A DNA stretch of 64,000 nucleotides from Methanotrichaceae archaeon (GTDB taxonomy: Archaea > Halobacteriota > Methanosarcinia > Methanotrichales > Methanotrichaceae): assembly GCA_963803145.1 (NCBI GenBank), contig CAWDLW010000017.1, positions 1 through 64,000 of the forward strand. Reading direction: 5' to 3'. Made by a program: the position numbers and the translations under genes. The stretch's first letter is position 1. Each line of letters begins with the position of its first letter. Below the pieces are notes generated by a model. That model saw only the letters and a list, made by a program, of their open reading frames with translations. It had not been told where the DNA came from and did not search any database. Below are positions 1,406 to 27,759 of the stretch, piece by piece.

Positions 1406-1639
1406 TGATTACGGTCCTGGTCTTTCTTTGGTCAGAGCCAGCTCCTACAGGACTCTTCATGTGGACTTTGTTGTCGTAATAAGGAGGGAGGCAAAAGCCT
1501 ATGTAGAAAATAGGTTATCGACTTTTGCCAATACACTATACGTCTATTGCCGATATTTAAGACTTTCGCCATAGCTAGAGAAATATGTGTCTGTTGCCTC
1601 ATAGATAGATAAGCAGAAAATAGCAAAATCGAAGACTCA

Positions 1640-2124
1640 GGCGGGGCCAACGCCGATCCACAGCGCCCTTTTAGGAGGAACCTGTCACAGAGTGCAGGCC
1701 TGACCCAGCTCAGAGTTCGATTATACGCCTGGGGCTAGAAGGCGGCACAGCACTGGAAATTCACACAGCTCCCTTCAATAGGGACCCCCAGGCATCGCCA
1801 GACGCGGGGCCTTGTGCTAGCCTTCTTGCCTTTGGCTTGATGCCGCGCCATGCCCCGACCGTGTATTAGCGTTAAGCCTGTCGGCAGATTGCTACGCAAG
1901 TTACGGCGTGCAACTTTTTCTCTGCCGAATTTCAGCTTAACAGGCTCGTAGCCGAATGCAGTGCCACGAAGACATGCATCTCCTGGAACAAGGACGCGAT
2001 CCACCCTAGAAGCGACCGCATGCTCAACCATCGATAGGGCAAACATCCAAATCTCCTTGCCAAACAGAGCATTATCAGATACGTTAAGCCCACGGCACAC
2101 CCGCCACCCTTTGCATGGCGCGCC
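1640..2124 (-). ncRNA. Candidate large structured non-coding RNA (~480 nt), family unknown
   Basis: About ten nested helices; G-U wobbles work only on the minus strand; TATA-like CTATAA ~25 bp upstream. Confidence 0.6.
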
Positions 2125-3452: not shown

Positions 3453-3845
3453 CTACCTCTAAAAAGTTTATCGCGCTTGTTCTCCCACTAATGGGACCGT
3501 GAAGGATAATGCCAGTCACCAAGGTCGATGAGAAGGGCAGAGTAGTCCTGCCAAGTGAGTTCAGGCGCAAGATGGGGATAAGCATCGGCGACGAGTTTAT
3601 TGTGGAGGAGCTGGGGCCGGATTCTCTCATCCTGAAGAAAGTAAACCTGCGGGCTCTGATGCAGGATATCATAGAGAAGGCCAAGAACATCGATATGGAT
3701 AAGCTAGAGGCTGATATCGAGGAAGAGGCTAACCGGCTTGCCAGACGAAAATACAAAATTCTTGATTGATGCCAACCTGTTCGTGGCAGCTAGCAAGAGC
3801 GGTAGGACAAGGAGCTCAGATCTCCCAAGCCCTCCTCGAAGGTCA
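3453..3845 (+). repeat. Near-identical duplicate of 79-472 (promoter, AbrB gene and PIN 5' end)
   Basis: Direct comparison shows only scattered substitutions. Confidence 0.95.
3509..3769 (+). CDS. AbrB-family antitoxin, paralogue of 135-395
   Basis: Differs from the first copy at four residues. Confidence 0.9.
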   Translation: MPVTKVDEKGRVVLPSEFRRKMGISIGDEFIVEELGPDSLILKKVNLRALMQDIIEKAKNIDMDKLEADIEEEANRLARRKYKILD

Positions 3846-4148: not shown

Positions 4149-4448
4149 TTAAACATTCGATTCGAACATCCCATTCCTGGATGTGGCCATCTTCCCCACT
4201 TGTGCAAGCCACCCTAGCTCCAGTAAGACCACATCAAGCTCGGTCTGTCTCGTCTGCAATCGGCGAGCCAGGTCGCTCTTGGCCATCGAGCCACCATGCT
4301 CTGTAAGTGTCCACAGAACACGATCTTGGTCATTTCTGGCAAGGGTCTTTTTCACCTGTTTCTGAAAGCTAGGTTATCTTTACCTGACCGCGATCTCTGG
4401 CAATTCACTGATTTCTTTGCTCTTACTGTAGGCGGAGTAGGGATTCAT
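4149..4448 (-). pseudogene. Small winged-helix gene remnant next to repeat copy 3
   Basis: DRVLWTLTEHGGSMAKSDLARRLQTRQTELDVVLLEL; homologous to 6117-6420. Confidence 0.7.
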
Positions 4449-4480
4449 GTGTAGTTAGCTTTTTCGGATGTCATCTACAC
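4449..4480. repeat. Copy 3 of the 32-bp palindromic repeat
   Basis: Identical to 40-71. Confidence 0.9.
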
Positions 4481-4634
4481 TAAACCATATGGACTTGAAT
4501 ATCGCCTTAGCTACGAGTAATGCTGATACCAGTTGGCTGCAGATTACATTCTAATAATGTGCCTTTGCCGACGAGAACGTAATGATTATTTAGATGAATG
4601 ATGAACAGGTTATTCTTAAGGAGCTTGGAAGTCC

Positions 4635-6120: not shown

Positions 6121-6420
6121 CGCCCATCCCTCAATCCTACAACGAGCTTGCACTTAATCTCCGTTACCTTGACTTTCCCGGCACGCTCAAGCTCCTGCAA
6201 GACTACACAAGCTCTGTTTGTCTCGTCTGCAATCGGCGAGCCAGGTCGATCTTGGTCATCGGGCCACCATGCTCTGTAAGTGTCCGCAGAACACGATCTG
6301 GTCATTTCTTGGCAAGGGTCTTTTCCACTTGTTCTGAAAGCTACGGGTATCTTCCCTGACCGCAATCTCTAGCGATTCATTGATTTCTTGCTCATACTGT
6401 AGGCCGGAGTAGGGACTCAT
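6117..6420 (-). pseudogene. Full-length but frameshifted small winged-helix gene
   Basis: MSPYSGLQYEQEINESLEIAVRE / LTEHGGPMTKIDLARRLQTRQ / VLQELERAGKVKVTEIK. Confidence 0.7.
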
Positions 6421-6444
6421 GTGTAGTTAGCTTTTTCGGATGTC
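6421..6444. repeat. Copy 4 (partial) of the palindromic repeat; right arm missing
   Basis: GTGTAGTTAGCTTTTTCGGATGTC then diverges. Confidence 0.85.
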
Positions 6445-6644
6445 TCCAAAGCCAAACATCTCCGGCATGACCTTTCTCTGCAATCTTTCCCTGAGTCTGT
6501 ACCCAACACTCAATGTTCTATAGTCCTACTCAACAATGCTCAATGGACAACAAGTGACGGAGCACAAAAGTAGATAATACCATGTTATGGTGAGACTTCA
6601 TAACAGCAGGATCAAATATCAATACCGCTTTAAAAGCTATCACA

Positions 6645-9676: not shown

Positions 9677-10067
9677 ATACACCTAATAATCCGAGGTTTT
9701 TCTTCATGTTGGTTCACCTTTCTCTGAATATCACATATAATAAAGTTAAAATGCGTATACTACTATCATATTTAATGGTTTCCATCAGTTACACCGTCGC
9801 GTTTTGTGGTCAATGGAGTTGGGAAACGCTATCCCTAGCCATATTCCTTCGACGCCTTAATATGCGACAGATCCCCCTGCTTTGGGTTGCTTATGCAACT
9901 TGCTGAAAATGATACCTTACCAGGAGCTTACAAATAGTAGATAAATGCATTATTAATTCTAGTATTTTTGAGGTTGAAAATAAATCCACCACGAAGTGAA
10001 GCCCTCAAAGGAGATGGATTCAGCCCTTATACTCTAGCTCCTTGGCCTTGTCGCTGGTTGCATCTGT

Positions 10068-11275
10068 TTATGTTGTACGACCCAATGCCTTGAGTGCAGC
10101 TTCCGCCGCCGATCGGACTTGCTTATTCTCATCCTTTAAAGCTTGAGTCAATGGCTCTATTGCTCTGGCATCTCTGATCTCACCGAGAACAAATACAGCA
10201 TTTCCTCGTACATAGCTATTATTATCCTTGAGAGCCAGGATCAGTGGTTCTAAAGCTCGTTTATCTTTGATCTCACCTAGAGCCAATGCAGCACTGCCTC
10301 GTACATAGCTATCATTATCTTTGAGAGCTAGGATCAGTGGCTCTATAGCTCTGGTATCATTGATAAAACCGAGGTAACTATTCAGCCTACCCTAATCAGC
10401 ATCTATAGTTGCATTCTTCGAAATTTCACATAGGTACTCTGCTGAACCTGTCTTTTGGATATGAAGCCGATAGATATTGATTTCCATTTTGCTTGGTGCT
10501 ATGACGGGATTAATCTCACTTCTCAAAACCACTATCATACGACCGTCCTAGGGAGGCTGAATAGTTACAAACCGAGAACAAATACAGCATTTCCTCGTAC
10601 ATAGCTATTATTATCCTTGAGAGCTAGGATCAGTGGTTCTAAAGCTCGTTTATCTTTGATCTCACCGAGAGCCAATGCAGCACTGCCTCGTACATAGCTA
10701 TCATTATCCTTGAGAGCTAGGATCAGTGGCTCTATAGCTCTGGTATCATTGATCTTTCCGAGAGCATATACAGCATCTTCTCGTACATAGCTATCATTAT
10801 CATTGAGAGCCAGGATCAGTGGTTCTACAGCTCGGGTATCATTGATCTCACCGAGAGCCAATACAGCACCTTCCCGTACTTGGCTACCATTATCATTAAG
10901 AGCCTGGATCAGTGGTTCTACAGCTCGGGTATCATTGATCTCACCGAGAGCCAATGCAGCACTTTCTCGTACATAGCTATCACTATCCTTGAGAGCCAGG
11001 ATCAGTGGTTCTACAGCTCTGATATCATTGATCTTACCGAGAGCCAATGCAGCATCTTCTCGTACTTGGCTATCATTATCCTTGAGAGCCTGGATCAGTG
11101 GTTCTACAGCTCGCTTATCTTTGATCTCGCCTAGTGATTCTGCGGCATCCGCTCGAATCGTGCTATTGTCATTCTTGAGATCTTTGATTAGCGAGTCTAC
11201 ATCTTTCGTCTGTTGCCCTAAAGCCGGTGCAGCCAGCACCATACCAAGTAGCAGGATAAACAATAATCTCTTCAA
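10068..11275 (-). pseudogene. Secreted HEAT-repeat protein interrupted by a MITE
   Basis: 93-bp tandem repeats; removing 203 bp (MITE plus one TSD) restores a 334-aa frame; paralogue of 4635. Confidence 0.88.
10374..10568. mobile_element. 195-bp MITE
   Basis: Perfect 15-bp IRs GTAACTATTCAGCCT / AGGCTGAATAGTTAC; 8-bp duplication AAACCGAG at 10366-10373 and 10569-10576. Confidence 0.92.
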
Positions 11276-11323: not shown

Positions 11324-11681
11324 TCGTTATGTTCATATTGGCCCCGATACTCATTGGGGTGTGTTCTGAAGTACATGCAGTGATCTCACCCCTTGCAAGG
11401 TAACCTAATAAAGCTTGAAACTTCTGAATATAATGGTAGTCAGAAATTACATACTATTACGGGGAAGATATTCTATGAAGCAATGGTGCATAGTCTCAAT
11501 CCCCGCATGATCACTTAGAAACCTCAATAGCCCAGATCCAAAATAATATGGCTCACAAATGGCCATAGCGAACTCCGAGGTAGTATCAGAGAAATCTTAT
11601 GTGCCAGCGTATCAGTAGTGGTATAAATAATATCTCAACCGAGACAGTCATTAACGCAATTACTGGAGCACATAAAAAGAA

Positions 11682-14213
11682 ATGAGAAGATTACCCGAAC
11701 TCCTCGCACCAGCAGGATCGCCTGATGCTTTGTTGGCTGCTGTAGCTGCCGGAGCCGATGCCGTATACCTAGGCGGCATTAGATTTGGTGCAAGAAAATT
11801 CGCCCAGAACTTCGATGAGTCGGAGCTAGAGAAGGCCATAGACTATGCTCACCTCCATAGAGTTAAGGTGTATATCACAGTGAACACTCTGATCAGGGAT
11901 AGCGAGCTTTCTGATGCCGCAAGATACCTTGTCAAGCTCTACGAGATTGGCGCTGATGCAGTTCTTGTTCAGGACATAGGCCTGGCAGCTCTGGCCCGAA
12001 CGCTGGTTCCCGACCTCGACATTCATGCATCGACGCAGACGACTATCCACAACAGCCAAGGCGCTGCCTGGGCAGCAAAGCTTGGAATGAAGCGCGTTGT
12101 CCTTGCGAGGGAGGTTTCCGTCAACGAGATCAAAAAGATGGCAAAGGAAGCGAAAGTTGGGCTGGAGGTTTTCGTCCATGGCGCCCTATGCTACTGCTAC
12201 TCAGGTCAGTGCCTCCTCTCTTCGGCTATTGGCGGCAGGAGCGGGAACAGAGGGATGTGCGCCCAGCCATGCAGGAAGCCCTATGTGCTCCTAAGAGGCG
12301 ATAAGGATCTGTATGGCCGTCCCGCAAATCTATTGGCCGCTGATATAAAGGATCGTTTTCTGCTCTCAACCCGCGACTTATCGGCCTACAGCAACCTGGA
12401 TAAGGTCGTGAACTCGCCTATTGAGTCCCTCAAAATCGAAGGCAGGATGAAATCGCCTGAGTATGTGGCCATAGTGACTGATATTTATCGCAAGGCTTTA
12501 GACAAGATAGCCGAAGGGACCTGGTCTCCCTCAAAACAGGATATGTCGGATCTTGCATTGGCATTCAATCGCGATTTTACAGGGGGCCACCTTTTGGGAT
12601 CGAAGGATATCATGGGACGCACGATGTCAGATAATCGAGGGCTTCTCATAGGCACTACGGTCTCATACGACTCTCAGCATGGCGAGGCCTCAACGAGGCT
12701 CCTGACATCCCTTATACCCGAACAGGGTGATGGGCTTGTCTTCATGGCTCCAGGCCAGGAGCTGGGAATGGTTGTGCATAAGCCCATCTTAAGGGATGGG
12801 CTACTCAAGCTCAAGACACCTGATAGGGTAAGGCCTGGAGCTAAGGTCTACCTAACAAGCAGCAATGCCATCTCAAGAAGAGCTAAAGATATAATCACCC
12901 GTCCTGCGATGCAGAGTTCTACGGTGCAGAGTTCTACGGTGCAGATTCCCATCGATCTCAGCATCGCCTGGGACGACGGCGTGCCTGTAGTCTGCGTTGA
13001 TGGGCCGGAGGAAATTGGACGCATTGAGTTCAGGGCGGATTTCAGGATGGATCCGGCGCTGAATAGGCCCCTGACATCCGAACAGATCGAGGCTCAGCTT
13101 CGCAAGACCGGAGGCACCCCATTCCTCATACGGAAACTTGAGATGAAATATCCTGGTGGGCTTTTTGCTCCCCTAAGTGCCCTTAACAAGCTTAGGCGCG
13201 ATATTCTGGCGAAGGTCGAGGCTGCTCTGCTAAGCGCCAAACGGCCTTCACCTGAGAGAGTAGAGGCCGCAAGGGAGAGGTTAGTAGGTATGGATTTGGC
13301 TCCTGTAAGGCGGCCATCGAGCAGAGTTCCATCTCTGGCAGCCTATACAGATAGCCTTGATGCCGTTAAGTCCGCTGCAGAAAGCGGATGCAGGCGAATC
13401 TATTTTGAGCCACACCTTGATAGAGGATACAGCAATAAAGACTACGCGGAAAGTGTTCTTGATCTTTTGAAAGAGGCGAAGGAACTATGTGCCGACGCAC
13501 GACTCATCTGGAAGTTGCCAAGGATTACCAAGGACGGCTATCTTAAGATCGCTGTGCCGCTTATATCTCAATCCAACGTAAGTGGAGTTATGGTCGAGGG
13601 AGTTGGCGCAGCTGAATCAGTCCTTTCTGGAGTGCCAGAGATGCCTATATCTGGCTCGATGAGCCTGAATATCTGGAACCATCTGACGGTATGGCAGCTA
13701 TCTCAGTTCGAGCGGCTGACACTGTCGCCTGAGCTTTCTTACGAACAACTATCTGAGATTGTGGCCGGAGCACGTTTAATGAAAATCCCAGATCTGGAAC
13801 TGATAGTCCAGGGCAGCCTGGAAGTGATGGTAACCGAGGACTGCCTGCCCTGCCTTGCTCAGGGCAAAGCCCAGTTCTGGGGCCTTCAGGATTTCAAGAG
13901 AATATTTCCACTTCGCATAGACGATGAATCCAAGACGCATATCTTCAACTCAGTTGAGACATGCCTCATAGATTATATGCCGAAGATATTTGAGATCGGC
14001 CTTGACGGCATTGCAGTTGATGCCCGAGGAAGAACTGGAAGATATGCAAAAGAAATGACTGAGCTGTACATCAGGGCTATTGAGCTGACTGAAAAAGGAG
14101 GAGCATCTCTTGGAAATGACCTTGAGAGCCTGAAGGAGGAGGCCAGGCAGAGATCTTTGGGCGGCATAACATCGGGACATTTCCTTAAGGGCTTGAAGGA
14201 AGAGTTATCGTAA
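11682..14213 (+). CDS. Peptidase U32 family protein with DUF3656 (RlhA-like RNA hydroxylase)
   Basis: PELLAPAGS, HGALCYCYSGQC, NRGMCAQPCR, KIEGRMK motifs. Confidence 0.9.
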   Translation: MRRLPELLAPAGSPDALLAAVAAGADAVYLGGIRFGARKFAQNFDESELEKAIDYAHLHRVKVYITVNTLIRDSELSDAARYLVKLYEIGADAVLVQDIGLAALARTLVPDLDIHASTQTTIHNSQGAAWAAKLGMKRVVLAREVSVNEIKKMAKEAKVGLEVFVHGALCYCYSGQCLLSSAIGGRSGNRGMCAQPCRKPYVLLRGDKDLYGRPANLLAADIKDRFLLSTRDLSAYSNLDKVVNSPIESLKIEGRMKSPEYVAIVTDIYRKALDKIAEGTWSPSKQDMSDLALAFNRDFTGGHLLGSKDIMGRTMSDNRGLLIGTTVSYDSQHGEASTRLLTSLIPEQGDGLVFMAPGQELGMVVHKPILRDGLLKLKTPDRVRPGAKVYLTSSNAISRRAKDIITRPAMQSSTVQSSTVQIPIDLSIAWDDGVPVVCVDGPEEIGRIEFRADFRMDPALNRPLTSEQIEAQLRKTGGTPFLIRKLEMKYPGGLFAPLSALNKLRRDILAKVEAALLSAKRPSPERVEAARERLVGMDLAPVRRPSSRVPSLAAYTDSLDAVKSAAESGCRRIYFEPHLDRGYSNKDYAESVLDLLKEAKELCADARLIWKLPRITKDGYLKIAVPLISQSNVSGVMVEGVGAAESVLSGVPEMPISGSMSLNIWNHLTVWQLSQFERLTLSPELSYEQLSEIVAGARLMKIPDLELIVQGSLEVMVTEDCLPCLAQGKAQFWGLQDFKRIFPLRIDDESKTHIFNSVETCLIDYMPKIFEIGLDGIAVDARGRTGRYAKEMTELYIRAIELTEKGGASLGNDLESLKEEARQRSLGGITSGHFLKGLKEELS

Positions 14214-24258: not shown

Positions 24259-27200
24259 TTATTTGTTGTGGATAATATTGCGCAATAGAGTTGCGAGATT
24301 GTCAATCTTCACAGGCTTTGCTATGTAACCATCCATGCCAGCTTCCAGACACTTTTCTTGATCACCATCCATTGCGAAGGCTGTGATGGCCACTATCTTC
24401 GGCCCATTATCAGGCCAACGCTTTCTTATCTCCTTTGTAGCAGTGAGCCCGTCCATCTCAGGCATCTTGATATCCATGAAGATCAGATCGTATGGCCGGA
24501 TTTGGAGGGCCTGCAGAACCTCACAGCCATCAGCTACTGCATCGGGCCTGTAGCCCAGACGTTTCAGCATTGCGACGAGAACTCTCTGATTTGAAGGGTT
24601 ATCCTCGGCTACGAGAATGCTCAGTGGCTTTTGAGCCGAGAGGTTCTCGTAGGCAGCAGCTTTATCCTTCTCACCTACGTCTAATTGTTTTCCTGGAATA
24701 GTCTCTGCCTGAATAGTGAATCTGAAAGTAGAGCCTTTGCCTTCTTCACTTTCGGCCCAGATCTCTCCGCCCATGAGTTCCACAAGCTTCTTACAGATGG
24801 AGAGTCCGAGTCCTGCGCCATCACGCTTGCGGCTTATTACATATTCAAGCTGAGTAAATGGTTGGAAGAGCCTATCCATTTTCTCCTGAGGCATTCCAAT
24901 GCCTGTATCTTTGACTGCAAACGTTATCTGGCGCTTGTTGCCTTCGAGAGCTTTGGAGGATACAGATATCGATATCTCTCCATTATCTGTAAATTTGACA
25001 GCATTACTAAGCAAATTGGCTAGAACCTGTCGAAGCCTTCCAGGATCACCAATGATAGTATCCGGTGTTCCGTAGTTGATGGTATAAGCAAGGTTCAGGC
25101 CCTTATCGTTGGCCTGCATTGCCACCATACTCATTGACTCCTCAATGCAATGCTTGATGCTTAACGGCTGGTGCTCCAGCGTTATCTTCTCCTTCTCAGC
25201 CTTGGAAAACTCCAGGATATCGCTGATTAGGGCCAGGAGAGCTTCACCGCCCACCCTGATTCTCTCAATATACTCCTTCTGATCCTGGGTGAGGTTATCT
25301 TCCAAGAGTAGGCTTGAGAAGCCTATAACAGCATTCAGAGGTGTCCTTAGCTCATGGCTCATATTTGCAAGGAAAGCGGCCTTGGCCTCGATTGCAGCCT
25401 CTGCTGCCGCTTTAGCCTTCAATAAATCTTTCTCTGTCTCTTCGTGCTCCAAGATCTCAGCATGAAGCTGTTGATTGATTTCTTCAAGGTTCTCTTTTGC
25501 CTCAGATAGCTCAAAGGTTCTCTCTCTGATTCTAAGCTCTAGCTCATTACGGGCTTTTTGTAGCTCTTCAGTCGTGGACCTTAGCTCCTCATTACTTGCG
25601 GCCAACTCCTCATTGACAGCAGCCAGCTGCTCATTAGCCTCCTGAAGATCCCTTGAATGCACTTCTAGTTCTTGTAGCAGACTCTGCCGTTCCTCCTCAG
25701 CCTTCTTGCGCTCGGAGATGTCAGCAGAGATGCCGGCTATCGCGTATATTCTCCCCCGCGCGTCCCGAAGTGGGAACTTCGTCGTAAGCCATGTAATCGA
25801 GCGGCCCTTGAGCTGGCTATACTCCTCGAACTCTAGTGCCCTCCCCGCCTCCATCACCTGGCGATCGTTTGCCTCATGCCAGTCTGCATCATCCTTGGGC
25901 ATGAACTCGTGCCGTCTCTTTCCGATCATCTGCTCCGGCGTCGAGTTGAGGAGCTCTGCCGTGGCGGTATTCGCCAGCAGAAAGCGTTCTTCCAGATCGA
26001 AGGCATAGATAACGGCCGGTGTGTTGTCGATGATGCTCTGGACCTGCCTACGAGCCGAAGCCACCGCCTCTTCCGCCTTCTTGCGTTCTGTGATATCTCG
26101 TGCGATGCCTATTATACCGATGATCTCGCCACTATCGTTGCGGTAAGGTGTTTTAGTGGATAGATAAGTTCTGTAGCCATCAGGCGTCTGGGCTACCTCT
26201 TCGATCACCTCAGTTTGGCCAGACTCCATTATCCGTCGATCGTTCGCCATAATGGTCTCCCCAATCTCCGGATCATCGTAGAACTCACGATCGCACTTGC
26301 CCATGATAGATTCACGGGGCTTGCCGATCATTTGAATCAAGGCAGGATTCGCAAAGATAATGCGACTCCTCAAGTCCTTGACAAAAACTAGATCGGTGGT
26401 GTCATCGGTAATGGCACGCAGGAGAGCTTGGCCTTCCCGTAGAGCCTCCTCTGCCAGCTTTCGCTCGGTGATATCGAAGAACGACGCCACGGCCCCAAGC
26501 AGGTTTTCGCTATCATCATATACCGGCTGTGCGTTCACCAGTCGCCATCTTAACTTCCCATCAGACGTTGGGACACCCATTTCAACATCCTGCACAGCCT
26601 GCCCAGTACGAAGTGCTACTATCGCTGGTTGTTCATCAACCGGGAAAAGTGTGCCATCTGGTCGGATTATTTGCCAACGTGGATCGAGTTTGGGATCGGC
26701 TAACTCCTCCAGAGTATGACCATGTATGCGTTGTACAGCATCGTTAACCTCTTCCACATCGCCTTTAGTGTTGAGGAAGACGATGCCTTCTGAGAGGGAT
26801 CTAAAGACGGCACGGAGTTTCGCTTCACTCTTGCGAAATGCTTCTTCGGCCTTCTTGCGCTCAGTGACATCCTGATAGGTACATATTAAAAGTTCGATTT
26901 TGCCATCCGGTTTGAGAACTGGTTCGGCGCTGATTTGCATCCAAATTAGATCACCGCCCTTGGGCAGTCTCACGCCCACAAGCTTGTTCCTGATAGGTTT
27001 GCCAGTCATTGCTGCCTTTCGGACGGGATGATTATCAACGTGCAGCAATGTGCCGTCTTCTTCGTATACCTGCCAATCACTCCAATTCTGGTCATTGACA
27101 TTTTTTATGTCAGTATCTTCTGATAGGCCAAACATCTTCAGGAATGCAGGATTGTATATTGTGAACTTGCTGGATTCATCTACAAGCGCCACGCCAGAAC

Positions 27201-27759
27201 TCAAGTTTTCGATAAGCGCCTTAAACTGCCCTTCGCTCTTTCTAAGCGCCTCCACCATTTTCTTGCGCTCTGTGATATCCATGAAGATAACCGCAAACTG
27301 GCGAGGCGCAGGGCTATAAGCGAAAACCTCGTAATGCCTTTTAAGTGCTGGAGAATAGTTTTCGAACTGTGTAGGCTTACCTGTGAGAGCAACGGCACCA
27401 TATTCCCTAACCCAGCGTGGATCATCGTCAGGCAAGATCTCGTTATGTGATCTACCTATCACATCCTTCCGTTTAAGGCCAGTAAGCCGCTCGAAGGCTG
27501 GGTTAATATCTAAAAATCGAAAATCAGCAGGCGTACCATTTTCATCGCAGATGACCTCATGTAAAGCAAATCCTTCAGTCATACCATTGAAGAGTCTACG
27601 ATAGCGCTCCTCGCTTTCTTGTAGCTCCGACTGAGCGCGCATGAGCTCATCGTTCCGCTGTATAAGCTCCTCATCAGCAGCCGATAGCTCCTCAAGGCTG
27701 GCCTGAAGACTCTCCAAAGTATCGGATAGGATTTTAGCCGCATTTGCTGGATTGCTCAC
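24259..27759 (-). CDS. Hybrid sensor histidine kinase with five PAS domains and a receiver domain
   Basis: Repeated DITERK linkers, HELRTPL H-box, DTGIG/GLGL G-boxes, DIKMP receiver. Confidence 0.95.
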   Translation of the reverse strand: MSNPANAAKILSDTLESLQASLEELSAADEELIQRNDELMRAQSELQESEERYRRLFNGMTEGFALHEVICDENGTPADFRFLDINPAFERLTGLKRKDVIGRSHNEILPDDDPRWVREYGAVALTGKPTQFENYSPALKRHYEVFAYSPAPRQFAVIFMDITERKKMVEALRKSEGQFKALIENLSSGVALVDESSKFTIYNPAFLKMFGLSEDTDIKNVNDQNWSDWQVYEEDGTLLHVDNHPVRKAAMTGKPIRNKLVGVRLPKGGDLIWMQISAEPVLKPDGKIELLICTYQDVTERKKAEEAFRKSEAKLRAVFRSLSEGIVFLNTKGDVEEVNDAVQRIHGHTLEELADPKLDPRWQIIRPDGTLFPVDEQPAIVALRTGQAVQDVEMGVPTSDGKLRWRLVNAQPVYDDSENLLGAVASFFDITERKLAEEALREGQALLRAITDDTTDLVFVKDLRSRIIFANPALIQMIGKPRESIMGKCDREFYDDPEIGETIMANDRRIMESGQTEVIEEVAQTPDGYRTYLSTKTPYRNDSGEIIGIIGIARDITERKKAEEAVASARRQVQSIIDNTPAVIYAFDLEERFLLANTATAELLNSTPEQMIGKRRHEFMPKDDADWHEANDRQVMEAGRALEFEEYSQLKGRSITWLTTKFPLRDARGRIYAIAGISADISERKKAEEERQSLLQELEVHSRDLQEANEQLAAVNEELAASNEELRSTTEELQKARNELELRIRERTFELSEAKENLEEINQQLHAEILEHEETEKDLLKAKAAAEAAIEAKAAFLANMSHELRTPLNAVIGFSSLLLEDNLTQDQKEYIERIRVGGEALLALISDILEFSKAEKEKITLEHQPLSIKHCIEESMSMVAMQANDKGLNLAYTINYGTPDTIIGDPGRLRQVLANLLSNAVKFTDNGEISISVSSKALEGNKRQITFAVKDTGIGMPQEKMDRLFQPFTQLEYVISRKRDGAGLGLSICKKLVELMGGEIWAESEEGKGSTFRFTIQAETIPGKQLDVGEKDKAAAYENLSAQKPLSILVAEDNPSNQRVLVAMLKRLGYRPDAVADGCEVLQALQIRPYDLIFMDIKMPEMDGLTATKEIRKRWPDNGPKIVAITAFAMDGDQEKCLEAGMDGYIAKPVKIDNLATLLRNIIHNK

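Follow-up and report, generated by a model that had tools for sequence, protein, structure and literature searches.

A multi-copy family of large non-coding RNAs in Methanotrichaceae, with one gene at positions 1633–2124 (minus strand) of a 64-kb contig stretch

To our knowledge, only a handful of structured RNA classes longer than about 300 nt are known beyond rRNA, RNase P RNA, signal recognition particle (SRP) RNA, and introns, and the large RNAs of unknown function (OLE, GOLLD, ROOL, raiA, and alike) are, as far as we know, all bacterial. ROOL, GOLLD, and OLE are large bacterial non-coding RNAs (ncRNAs), associated with multimeric cages. Transposon guide RNAs (TnpB/IscB omega RNA, HEARO, IS110 bridge RNA) are encoded within or next to the gene for their nuclease or recombinase and have a variable guide segment at one terminus; group II introns have a domain V/VI core, a 5' GUGYG and, often, an open reading frame (ORF) for a reverse transcriptase (RT). 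Here, we describe a locus in the first 64,000 nt of contig CAWDLW010000017.1 (Methanotrichaceae archaeon, assembly GCA_963803145.1); this whole stretch is referred to as the window. The locus, at about 1633–2124 on the minus strand, is a gene belonging to a multi-copy family of large ncRNAs found only in Methanotrichaceae, with at least nine members in the same genome. Coordinates are window positions, the RNA gene is read on the minus strand, and G000 denotes the source assembly.

The scan with Rfam 15 (4227 models, including RNase P, SRP, group I/II introns, OLE, GOLLD, ROOL, HEARO, raiA, and small ribozymes) yields no matches at gathering thresholds, either in the 64-kb window or in the variant loci L006 and L007 described below; at E-values up to 10, region 1300–2700 has two irrelevant weak matches, both outside the RNA, and no tRNA or tmRNA genes are found in the window. 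This agrees with the first-pass annotation, made from the letters of the window, which had seen no RNase P, SRP, rRNA, intron, or hammerhead signature here. The RNase P RNA of the same genome (RF00373) is encoded elsewhere (G000:C9:3971–4272, C38:46773–47074, and C17:254301–254602; 208–215 bits), as is its SRP RNA (RF01857; G000:C34:22164–22479, 181 bits). Archaeal RNase P RNA resembles the new family in being a two-domain stable RNA of several hundred nucleotides with long-range closing helices and a stable-RNA style of promoter; however, the family scores nothing on RF00373 and is multi-copy with several architectures. Similarly, archaeal SRP RNA is abundant, structured, about 300 nt long, and paired between its 5' and 3' parts, but the family has no RF01857 match. 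A group II intron was rejected, as there is no Rfam Intron_gpII or D1–D4 match and no RT-like ORF among the recurring neighbours. ROOL, GOLLD, and OLE share with the family a length of hundreds of nucleotides, an ornate multi-helix fold, invariant junctions, narrow range, abundance, and the absence of an obligatory adjoining protein gene. Unlike them, the family is archaeal, chromosomal, and multi-copy, has a putative promoter of its own, has not been seen in phage or viral DNA, has no tRNA neighbours, and does not match their Rfam models. Transposon guide RNAs are also structured, 150–400 nt long, and present in many copies per genome; here, in contrast, no nuclease or recombinase gene recurs, both ends are conserved and paired (the 5' end in H1, the 3' end in H2'; helix names as in Table 1), and HEARO is unmatched.

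No description of this RNA family was found in open-access text, while an earlier description elsewhere is possible. We consider it quite probable that the family has not yet been described. The alternative, a described family that is absent from Rfam 15, modelled there too narrowly, or published elsewhere, is improbable: Methanothrix soehngenii and M. harundinacea were sequenced long ago, but Rfam gives nothing relevant even at the relaxed threshold, and the open-access literature on Methanothrix/Methanosaeta ncRNA, as far as its text was accessible, yielded no description. The first-pass suggestion of a new large minus-strand ncRNA class is supported by these searches of Rfam and open-access text and by the covariation, non-coding variation, and RNA-library contigs considered below.

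BLAST search with the 691-nt unit (1480–2170) finds matches in 41 of 61 genomes of the family, many at several places; in the own genome, two further full-length copies have 76–78% identity, and there are partial matches. Using MAFFT and Infernal models, we aligned 33 full-length copies (A2) and 44 diverse 3' domains (A7), and derived two covariance models, R1 for the central part and R2 for the 3' domain (built from the 44 diverse copies), on which the window copy scores 171.9 and 129.7 bits, respectively. The 105 tested genomes of the order all represent one family, Methanotrichaceae. R1 matches 70 of them, and R2 matches 82, in 11 of 16 genera, with 1–11 places per genome and at least 350 places in total (150 listed and 200 more reported); in the own genome, nine strong R2 matches score at least 86 bits each. 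The homologue search proposed in the first pass has yielded many Methanotrichaceae homologues. No R2 match is seen in genera g6 (0/7 genomes) and g5 (0/3). R1 has no matches in the 76 genomes tested from the class's four other families, and among 146 genomes of the phylum outside the family R2 has a single 24-bit match that is not credible. The exact 3'-domain pattern, searched in one genome per species over 185,579 species, occurs in 58 stretches, and the titles of 56 name Methanothrix, Methanosaeta, Methanotrichaceae, or Methanosarcinales. Of the other two, one lies on a 5.6-kb contig (L168) assigned to an Oscillospiraceae bin; its 3' domain is genuine (78.5 bits), and the contig most likely comes from Methanotrichaceae and was misbinned. 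The other, in Ramlibacter (8 bits), was rejected as chance. Due to its three RNase P RNA genes, two of them with identical scores, and an estimated contamination of 6.77%, the own assembly may mix close strains, and copy numbers there may be inflated.

With RNAalifold, 92 pairs are predicted for the 33 copies, and compensatory changes are seen in 23 of these; the addition of the 5'-closing helix proposed in the first pass gives a 96-pair structure. In A2, 95.9% of 3149 cells pair in this structure, versus 38–42% when the 3' partners are slid by 1–3 columns; compensatory changes are seen in 26 pairs (95 cells) versus 5–15 pairs (7–20 cells) when slid, and none of 500 column shuffles reaches the observed pairing or compensation. 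The 3' domain in A7 behaves similarly, with 93.3% of cells paired versus 32–45% when slid, and compensatory changes in 20 of 32 pairs, again not reached by any of 500 shuffles. Pair 2095–1859 of H3 is C-G in 22 copies, U-A in 11, and broken in none; one pair of H8 is G-C in 19 and A-U in 14 of the 33 copies; one pair of He is A-U (10), U-A (8), or G-U (8); and the helix GGGCRGG/CCY-GCCU closing the 3' domain has A-U for G-C at three positions in different lineages. Another closing helix suggested by RNAalifold, 5' GGCGGGY/3' CCYGCC, was dropped, as it has one-sided changes only and GGGCRGG covaries with the same 3' strand; it is still included (as helix 2) in the 96-pair test. The pairing UCGUG/CACGR, obtained with RNAalifold for the isolated central part, was rejected as well, the double changes being found in H3. 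An inter-domain pairing GGCGG/CYGCC is compatible in 29–33 of 33 copies, shows no double change, is absent from type 2 copies (below), and is left as an idea. As for the strand, A2 contains 484 G-U cells versus 46 A-C cells, and the plus strand would pair in 82.0% of cells compared with the 95.9% of the minus strand, which confirms the G-U/A-C asymmetry noted in the first pass and points to a minus-strand RNA.

Eleven helices had been proposed from the window sequence; when mapped on the 33 copies, seven survive, and two more are plausible but out-competed. The closing helix 1844–1853/2113–2122 pairs in 19–33 copies depending on the pair, with compensatory changes in three pairs. In the long hairpin, six of seven pairs of 1871–1877/1935–1941 hold in at least 30 copies, seven of eight pairs of 1881–1888/1921–1928 in at least 27, and 1889–1897/1906–1913, with its bulge placed, has ten pairs that hold in 27–33 copies, four of them with compensatory changes. 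Helix 1650–1655/1661–1666 holds in 28–33 copies; of 1770–1774/1780–1784, the three central pairs hold in 29–31; and 1996–2001/2014–2019, in a variable and poorly aligned part, holds in 15–29. Helix 1961–1970/2089–2098 is pair-compatible but has no compensatory changes, whereas its rival 2091–2096/1858–1863 covaries; likewise, 1644–1650/1700–1706 is pair-compatible with one compensatory change, whereas its rival 1705–1711/1639–1646 has five covarying pairs. Helices 1791–1796/1839–1844 and 1728–1734/1786–1792 are not conserved in the 33 copies.

The GC content is 0.51–0.585 across 1601–2100 versus 0.39–0.48 in the flanks on either side, as expected from the earlier description of a GC-rich stretch lacking a credible protein. 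The sole sizeable ORF (121 aa, 1735–2100, minus strand) has no Pfam matches and is not conserved: 414 of 437 indel runs in the 32 other copies are not multiples of three and break its frame, and in each of these 32 copies one or more stops interrupt the frame that begins at the homologous ORF start. The longest ORFs of the 33 copies have a median length of 75 aa, reach 100 aa in six copies, and differ in frame and strand. The variation among homologues, for which a check on codon-type changes had been proposed, is therefore of a non-coding pattern. The extent of the 121-aa ORF could speak for a protein-coding gene, a pseudogene, or a leader acting in cis on a neighbouring gene, but such a reading is extremely improbable: the coding reading fails because indels break the frame and the ORF is interrupted in all other copies, so that it is already refuted, while a leader is at odds with downstream genes that vary from copy to copy and with the T-runs that come after the last helix.

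In 20 RNA runs (18 studies; metatranscriptomes of peat, bioreactors, freshwater, and soil), 24–33% of the sampled words of 1400–2300 are found; the word shares (0.24–0.33) in the 16 runs without contig placement are not counted as evidence. In all four runs examined (four studies), contigs fall on 1633–2150 with 90–100% likeness. In the same four runs, flanks 1411–1632 and 2151–2400 are uncovered, and the depth over 1300–1410 does not exceed about 5; no evidence is drawn from this either, and the uncovered bins of module B (Table 1) say nothing on its expression. No cleavage-site signature or circular joint is seen in the contigs, the few joints being single contigs with mostly short sides. 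Covariation, non-coding variation, and cover by RNA-library contigs, all generic features of structured ncRNAs, are found together here, and the family is very probably a real, conserved, structured ncRNA family.

Table 1. Features of the RNA gene and its surroundings (window positions).
Feature	Position	Strand	Description
Conserved block, putative promoter	2125–2166	−	Inverted repeat ~CCGCAAACTA ... TAGTTTGCSG around two TATA-like boxes
RNA gene, type 1, ~490–505 nt	1633–2124	−	33-copy alignment, RNA-library contigs, covariation
Domain 1	1842–2124	−	Closed by H1 (2113–2124/1842–1853); holds two three-way junctions and a long arm
5' strand of H3 (2091–2096/1858–1863) and H4a–c (2076–2090/1943–1954)	2076–2096	−	Three-way junction with the H6 arm; H3 and H4a–c stack around the long arm
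Variable insert V1	1986–2064	−	Carried by helix Hy (2066–2069/1980–1983)
Hairpin H5	1955–1980	−	GAUGCA...UGCAUU, UUCG-type loop
Long arm H6–H7–H8	1870–1942	−	Long hairpin of the first-pass annotation
H8	1888–1914	−	Bulged A, GUAA-type loop; retained in type 2 copies
Inter-domain variable linker	1784–1841	−	Partly an insertion of the window lineage; mostly gap columns in the other 30 copies
Domain 2 (3' domain)	1639–1783	−	Multi-helix junction closed by H2' (1705–1711/1639–1646)
Hairpin Ha	1771–1783	−	In domain 2
Hb	1751–1770	−	In domain 2
Variable part	1712–1750	−	In domain 2
He	1679–1700	−	Inside H2'
Hf	1667–1678	−	Inside H2'
Hg	1650–1666	−	Inside H2'
T-rich spacer, likely terminator region	1585–1632	−	T-runs after the last helix in aligned copies; conservation poor
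Module B, ~95 nt	1480–1575	−	Box like that of the B recognition element (BRE)/TATA, 10-bp hairpin GGCAAAAGTC...GACTTTTGCC, tail CCTCCCTCC

We infer that the 5' end of the RNA is at about 2124 and the 3' end between 1633 and the T-runs at about 1610–1626. H1 has 12 pairs, four with compensatory changes, and its GCCGCG/CGCGGC closure is also present in type 2 and short variants. H4b and H4c together show compensatory changes in three pairs; the long arm shows them in three pairs of H6, one of H7, and four of H8. The second junction of domain 1 is formed by H4c, Hy, and H5. Hy (CUCU/RGAG) pairs in all 33 copies, with U-G to U-A as the sole variation, and in the shortest type 2 copies forms a simple hairpin, while the length of V1 varies by about 0–100 nt; H5 (eight pairs, 99.5–100% of cells paired) is near-invariant and hence carries little weight for or against the fold. 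Domain 2 is the part common to most variants. Generally, in the alignments peripheral hairpins vary freely, and junction nucleotides are almost invariant. Two copies, L004 (1529–1693; G000:C18:130783–130960) and L005 (1459–1617; C11:81416–81587), have a doubled AGCUAAAUACC segment in the Hb loop.

Several architectures differ from this type 1 RNA. Type 2 copies (400–490 nt; genera g2, g8, g15, and g16) keep the promoter block, H1, Hy, H8, and domain 2, and differ in the 5' region. The own genome also contains a short version of about 340 nt, at L006 (G000:C11 ~27160–27703) and L007 (G000:C2 ~11413–11960), with the shared promoter block and 3' domain and a much reduced domain 1. Conversely, the RNA of about 300 nt found in two g8 genomes (L033, G022:C1 ~1537275–1537640; L034, G049:C29) consists of domain 1 only: it lacks the 3' domain and ends with CAUUCCCUCCUCUU, after which the sequence is AT-rich; the R2 search finds no 3' domain anywhere in G022. 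The domains are therefore modules. Types 1 and 2 occur together in G026 of g15 (L012 and L103) and in G017 of g2 (L025 and L109); as each of the two types is found in several genera, the paralogy seems to predate these genera.

The block upstream of the RNA gene is the best-conserved part of the unit among paralogues and genera (83–93% identity). Its distal TATA-like box, at 2144–2154, precedes the first RNA helix by about 27 nt, close to the 25 bp given in the first-pass annotation. The paralogues become similar some 12 nt ahead of the box AACTACAAATATCTATAACGATTATATAG, and the right arm of the flanking inverted repeat enters the first helix. In the own genome, the 22-nt box occurs only at family members, at four places with up to three mismatches, versus none for the reversed control. 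By analogy with archaeal BRE/TATA spacing, the block would act as a promoter, and because the palindrome flanks the TATA boxes, a single dimeric regulator is suggested for all copies.

The other end of the unit, beyond the T-rich spacer, carries module B, located about 60–110 nt past the T-runs after almost every one of the 33 full copies and after many divergent copies; its hairpin loop holds CCCTCC. In the own genome it is found at seven places, three beside full copies and four lacking a full copy (G000:C17:86145–86231, C17:87294–87386, C8:84393–84494, and C8:533826–533871), and one of the lone modules has a weak 3'-domain remnant directly upstream. Module B might represent another small RNA, a site for protein binding, or a leader. 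Elements of the CCUCC type also underlie the third-ranked explanation of the family, that of a base-pairing or decoy regulator whose CCUCC elements would mimic the anti-Shine–Dalgarno end of 16S rRNA and bind ribosome-binding sites or their partners. This is distinctly unlikely: GGCUCCUCC is conserved in the 3' domain, the domain-1-only variant of the two g8 genomes terminates in CAUUCCCUCCUCUU, and module B has CCCTCC in the loop and CCTCCCTCC after the hairpin, but the 3'-domain motif is partly paired, the adjoining loop is not conserved, and about 500 nt of covarying structure far exceeds the needs of a pairing regulator.

To survey the neighbours, ORFs of at least 60 aa around the 33 loci were clustered. 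No protein family accompanies all 33 copies; the recurring neighbours are DUF1699, MC1, a 58-aa Lys-rich protein, a winged helix–turn–helix (wHTH) protein, and a Dabb protein. DUF1699 is encoded upstream on the same strand at 10 loci; the 58-aa protein is encoded divergently upstream at eight, e.g., at L002:2117–2293 on the plus strand; and MC1 recurs at six. Loci syntenic with that of the window are present in two other genomes, all three having an ORF for a 95-aa wHTH protein about 720–760 nt upstream.

The first-pass annotation had taken the RNA for mobile cargo. An RNA of a mobile element spreading inside genomes and from one to another (transposon guide, retroelement RNA, or cargo of an integron-like cassette) would fit the 1–11 copies per genome, the truncated or decayed copies, the tandem or nearby duplicates, and the position of the window copy among toxin–antitoxin modules and a repeated element of about 94 nt. 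It is nevertheless highly improbable, and the cargo proposal is not supported. There is synteny across genera, with the wHTH ORF retained at three loci and MC1, the 58-aa gene, and DUF1699 at 6–10; architectures coexist in single genomes of different genera, so that the paralogues seem to be of old origin and not the result of a recent spread. A comparison of the paralogues, in which empty sites were not looked for, reveals neither terminal (inverted) repeats nor flanks in common that would bound the unit; no transposase, recombinase, nuclease, RT, or TnpB/IscB gene recurs beside the 33 copies; and searches of plasmids, phages, and viral contigs reveal no copy.

The surroundings of the window copy contain repeats of their own. 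An element of about 94–110 nt with 74–87% identity, ending in the hairpin-forming GTGTAGTTAGCTTTTTCGGATGTCATCTACAC, is found at 25–80, 1304–1414, 4379–4489, and 6351–6461; it punctuates the toxin–antitoxin region and probably corresponds to the cassette boundaries of the first-pass annotation. A 300-nt duplication (96% identity; 134–433 and 3508–3807) covers an 86-aa ORF and the start of its downstream partner ORF, the second copy of the latter appearing truncated. The 86-aa ORF, starting with MPVTKVDEKGRVVLP, is presumably SpoVT/AbrB-like, and its partner is probably a PIN-type toxin, judging from sequence. A tandem array at 9996–11221 (at least nine units, 93-nt period, 62–87% identity to the reference unit) is probably a gene for a repeat-domain protein.

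We lean slightly towards a stable, structured ncRNA of about 500 nt that acts in trans and is likely the core of a ribonucleoprotein as the overall best explanation of the family. The gene would be transcribed from its own conserved promoter, in which the palindrome flanks the TATA boxes, and one dimeric regulator binding this palindrome would switch all copies; the RNA would fold into two separable domains, act in trans as a structural RNA, and serve as the scaffold or core of a ribonucleoprotein, possibly together with the divergently encoded 58-aa Lys-rich three-helix protein. The scaffold mode of action, proposed by analogy, is tentative and falls somewhat short of an even chance. A shape-based trans-acting RNA is favoured because of the invariant junctions, the freely varying peripheral hairpins, and the two autonomous domains; roles as a leader, a mobile-element RNA, or a regulator by base pairing are less likely. 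Ranked second, and unlikely, is an RNA that works alone, either as a ribozyme or as a self-assembling particle like ROOL, GOLLD, and OLE, with the invariant junctions forming an active site or contacts between copies. Such an RNA would account for the length of about 340–520 nt with many helices, the same contrast between near-invariant junctions and freely variable hairpins at the periphery, the presence in the alignments of several loops of the UUCG and GNRA types, the lack of a protein gene common to all copies, and the high summed depth in RNA libraries; still, no known ribozyme model matches, and the contigs have neither a cleavage-site signature nor a circular joint.

Several points weigh against the preferred reading of a trans-acting structural RNA in a ribonucleoprotein. 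Single-sequence energy is unremarkable: RNAfold gives the minus strand a minimum free energy of −195.9 kcal/mol versus −187.9 ± 6.8 for dinucleotide shuffles (z = −1.18), with 14 of 100 shuffles folding as well, and z = −0.54 for the plus strand; the earlier description of a highly structured RNA thus fails on energy and stands on the comparative data from the family alignments. The aligned copies are paralogues and close relatives, and the compensatory cells counted above are not independent events; the shuffle control ignores this relatedness, and the structure is partly derived from the same alignments. Because of mismatches in H2' (two) and in one of the V1 hairpins, the window copy could be a weaker member of the family. 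The RNA-library contigs give neither the ends nor the strand of the transcript; the summed word depth, up to about 5 × 10^5 over the conserved core 1855–2002, is a poor measure of expression, as it mixes paralogues and species, and DNA may be present in RNA libraries. The literature search was limited to open-access text.

The remaining points concern the 58-aa protein, a partnership with which is possible, judging from gene position. Its gene is present in 44 of 105 genomes, all of RNA-bearing genera, and at 14 of the 30 best 58-aa loci a 3' domain lies within 1.5 kb; at the other 16 there is none within this distance, the gene was not found in RNA-bearing genera g8, g9, g10, g13, and g14, and the linkage may largely be inherited synteny. 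The protein has no Pfam or NCBIfam family, no usable Atlas match, and no sequence match in PDB. Its AlphaFold model is a three-helix bundle (pLDDT 85.7), for which Foldseek returns no match better than E = 2.7. A longer paralogue of about 100 aa is encoded elsewhere.

The most far-reaching reading, which at present is doubtful, is that of the first large, ornate, lineage-specific class of archaeal RNAs, doing something that no known RNA class does: a two-domain RNA of 340–520 nt, abundant in Methanothrix with up to 11 paralogues per genome, whose function would be catalysis, self-assembly, or the core of a new ribonucleoprotein with the 58-aa protein, and whose copies would be switched together by the palindromic promoter. 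For annotation, the family matters as gene callers can set spurious ORFs, such as the 121-aa one, over the RNA, and its reads in rRNA-depleted metatranscriptomes are otherwise tallied as "unknown". For RNA biologists, an archaeal class with covariation, several architectures, and many paralogues means a new fold and, possibly, a new function. Methanothrix is among the main biological sources of methane, and the clade carrying the family matters for global methane production and anaerobic digesters; to microbial ecologists, the family offers an abundant and specific Methanothrix marker transcript.

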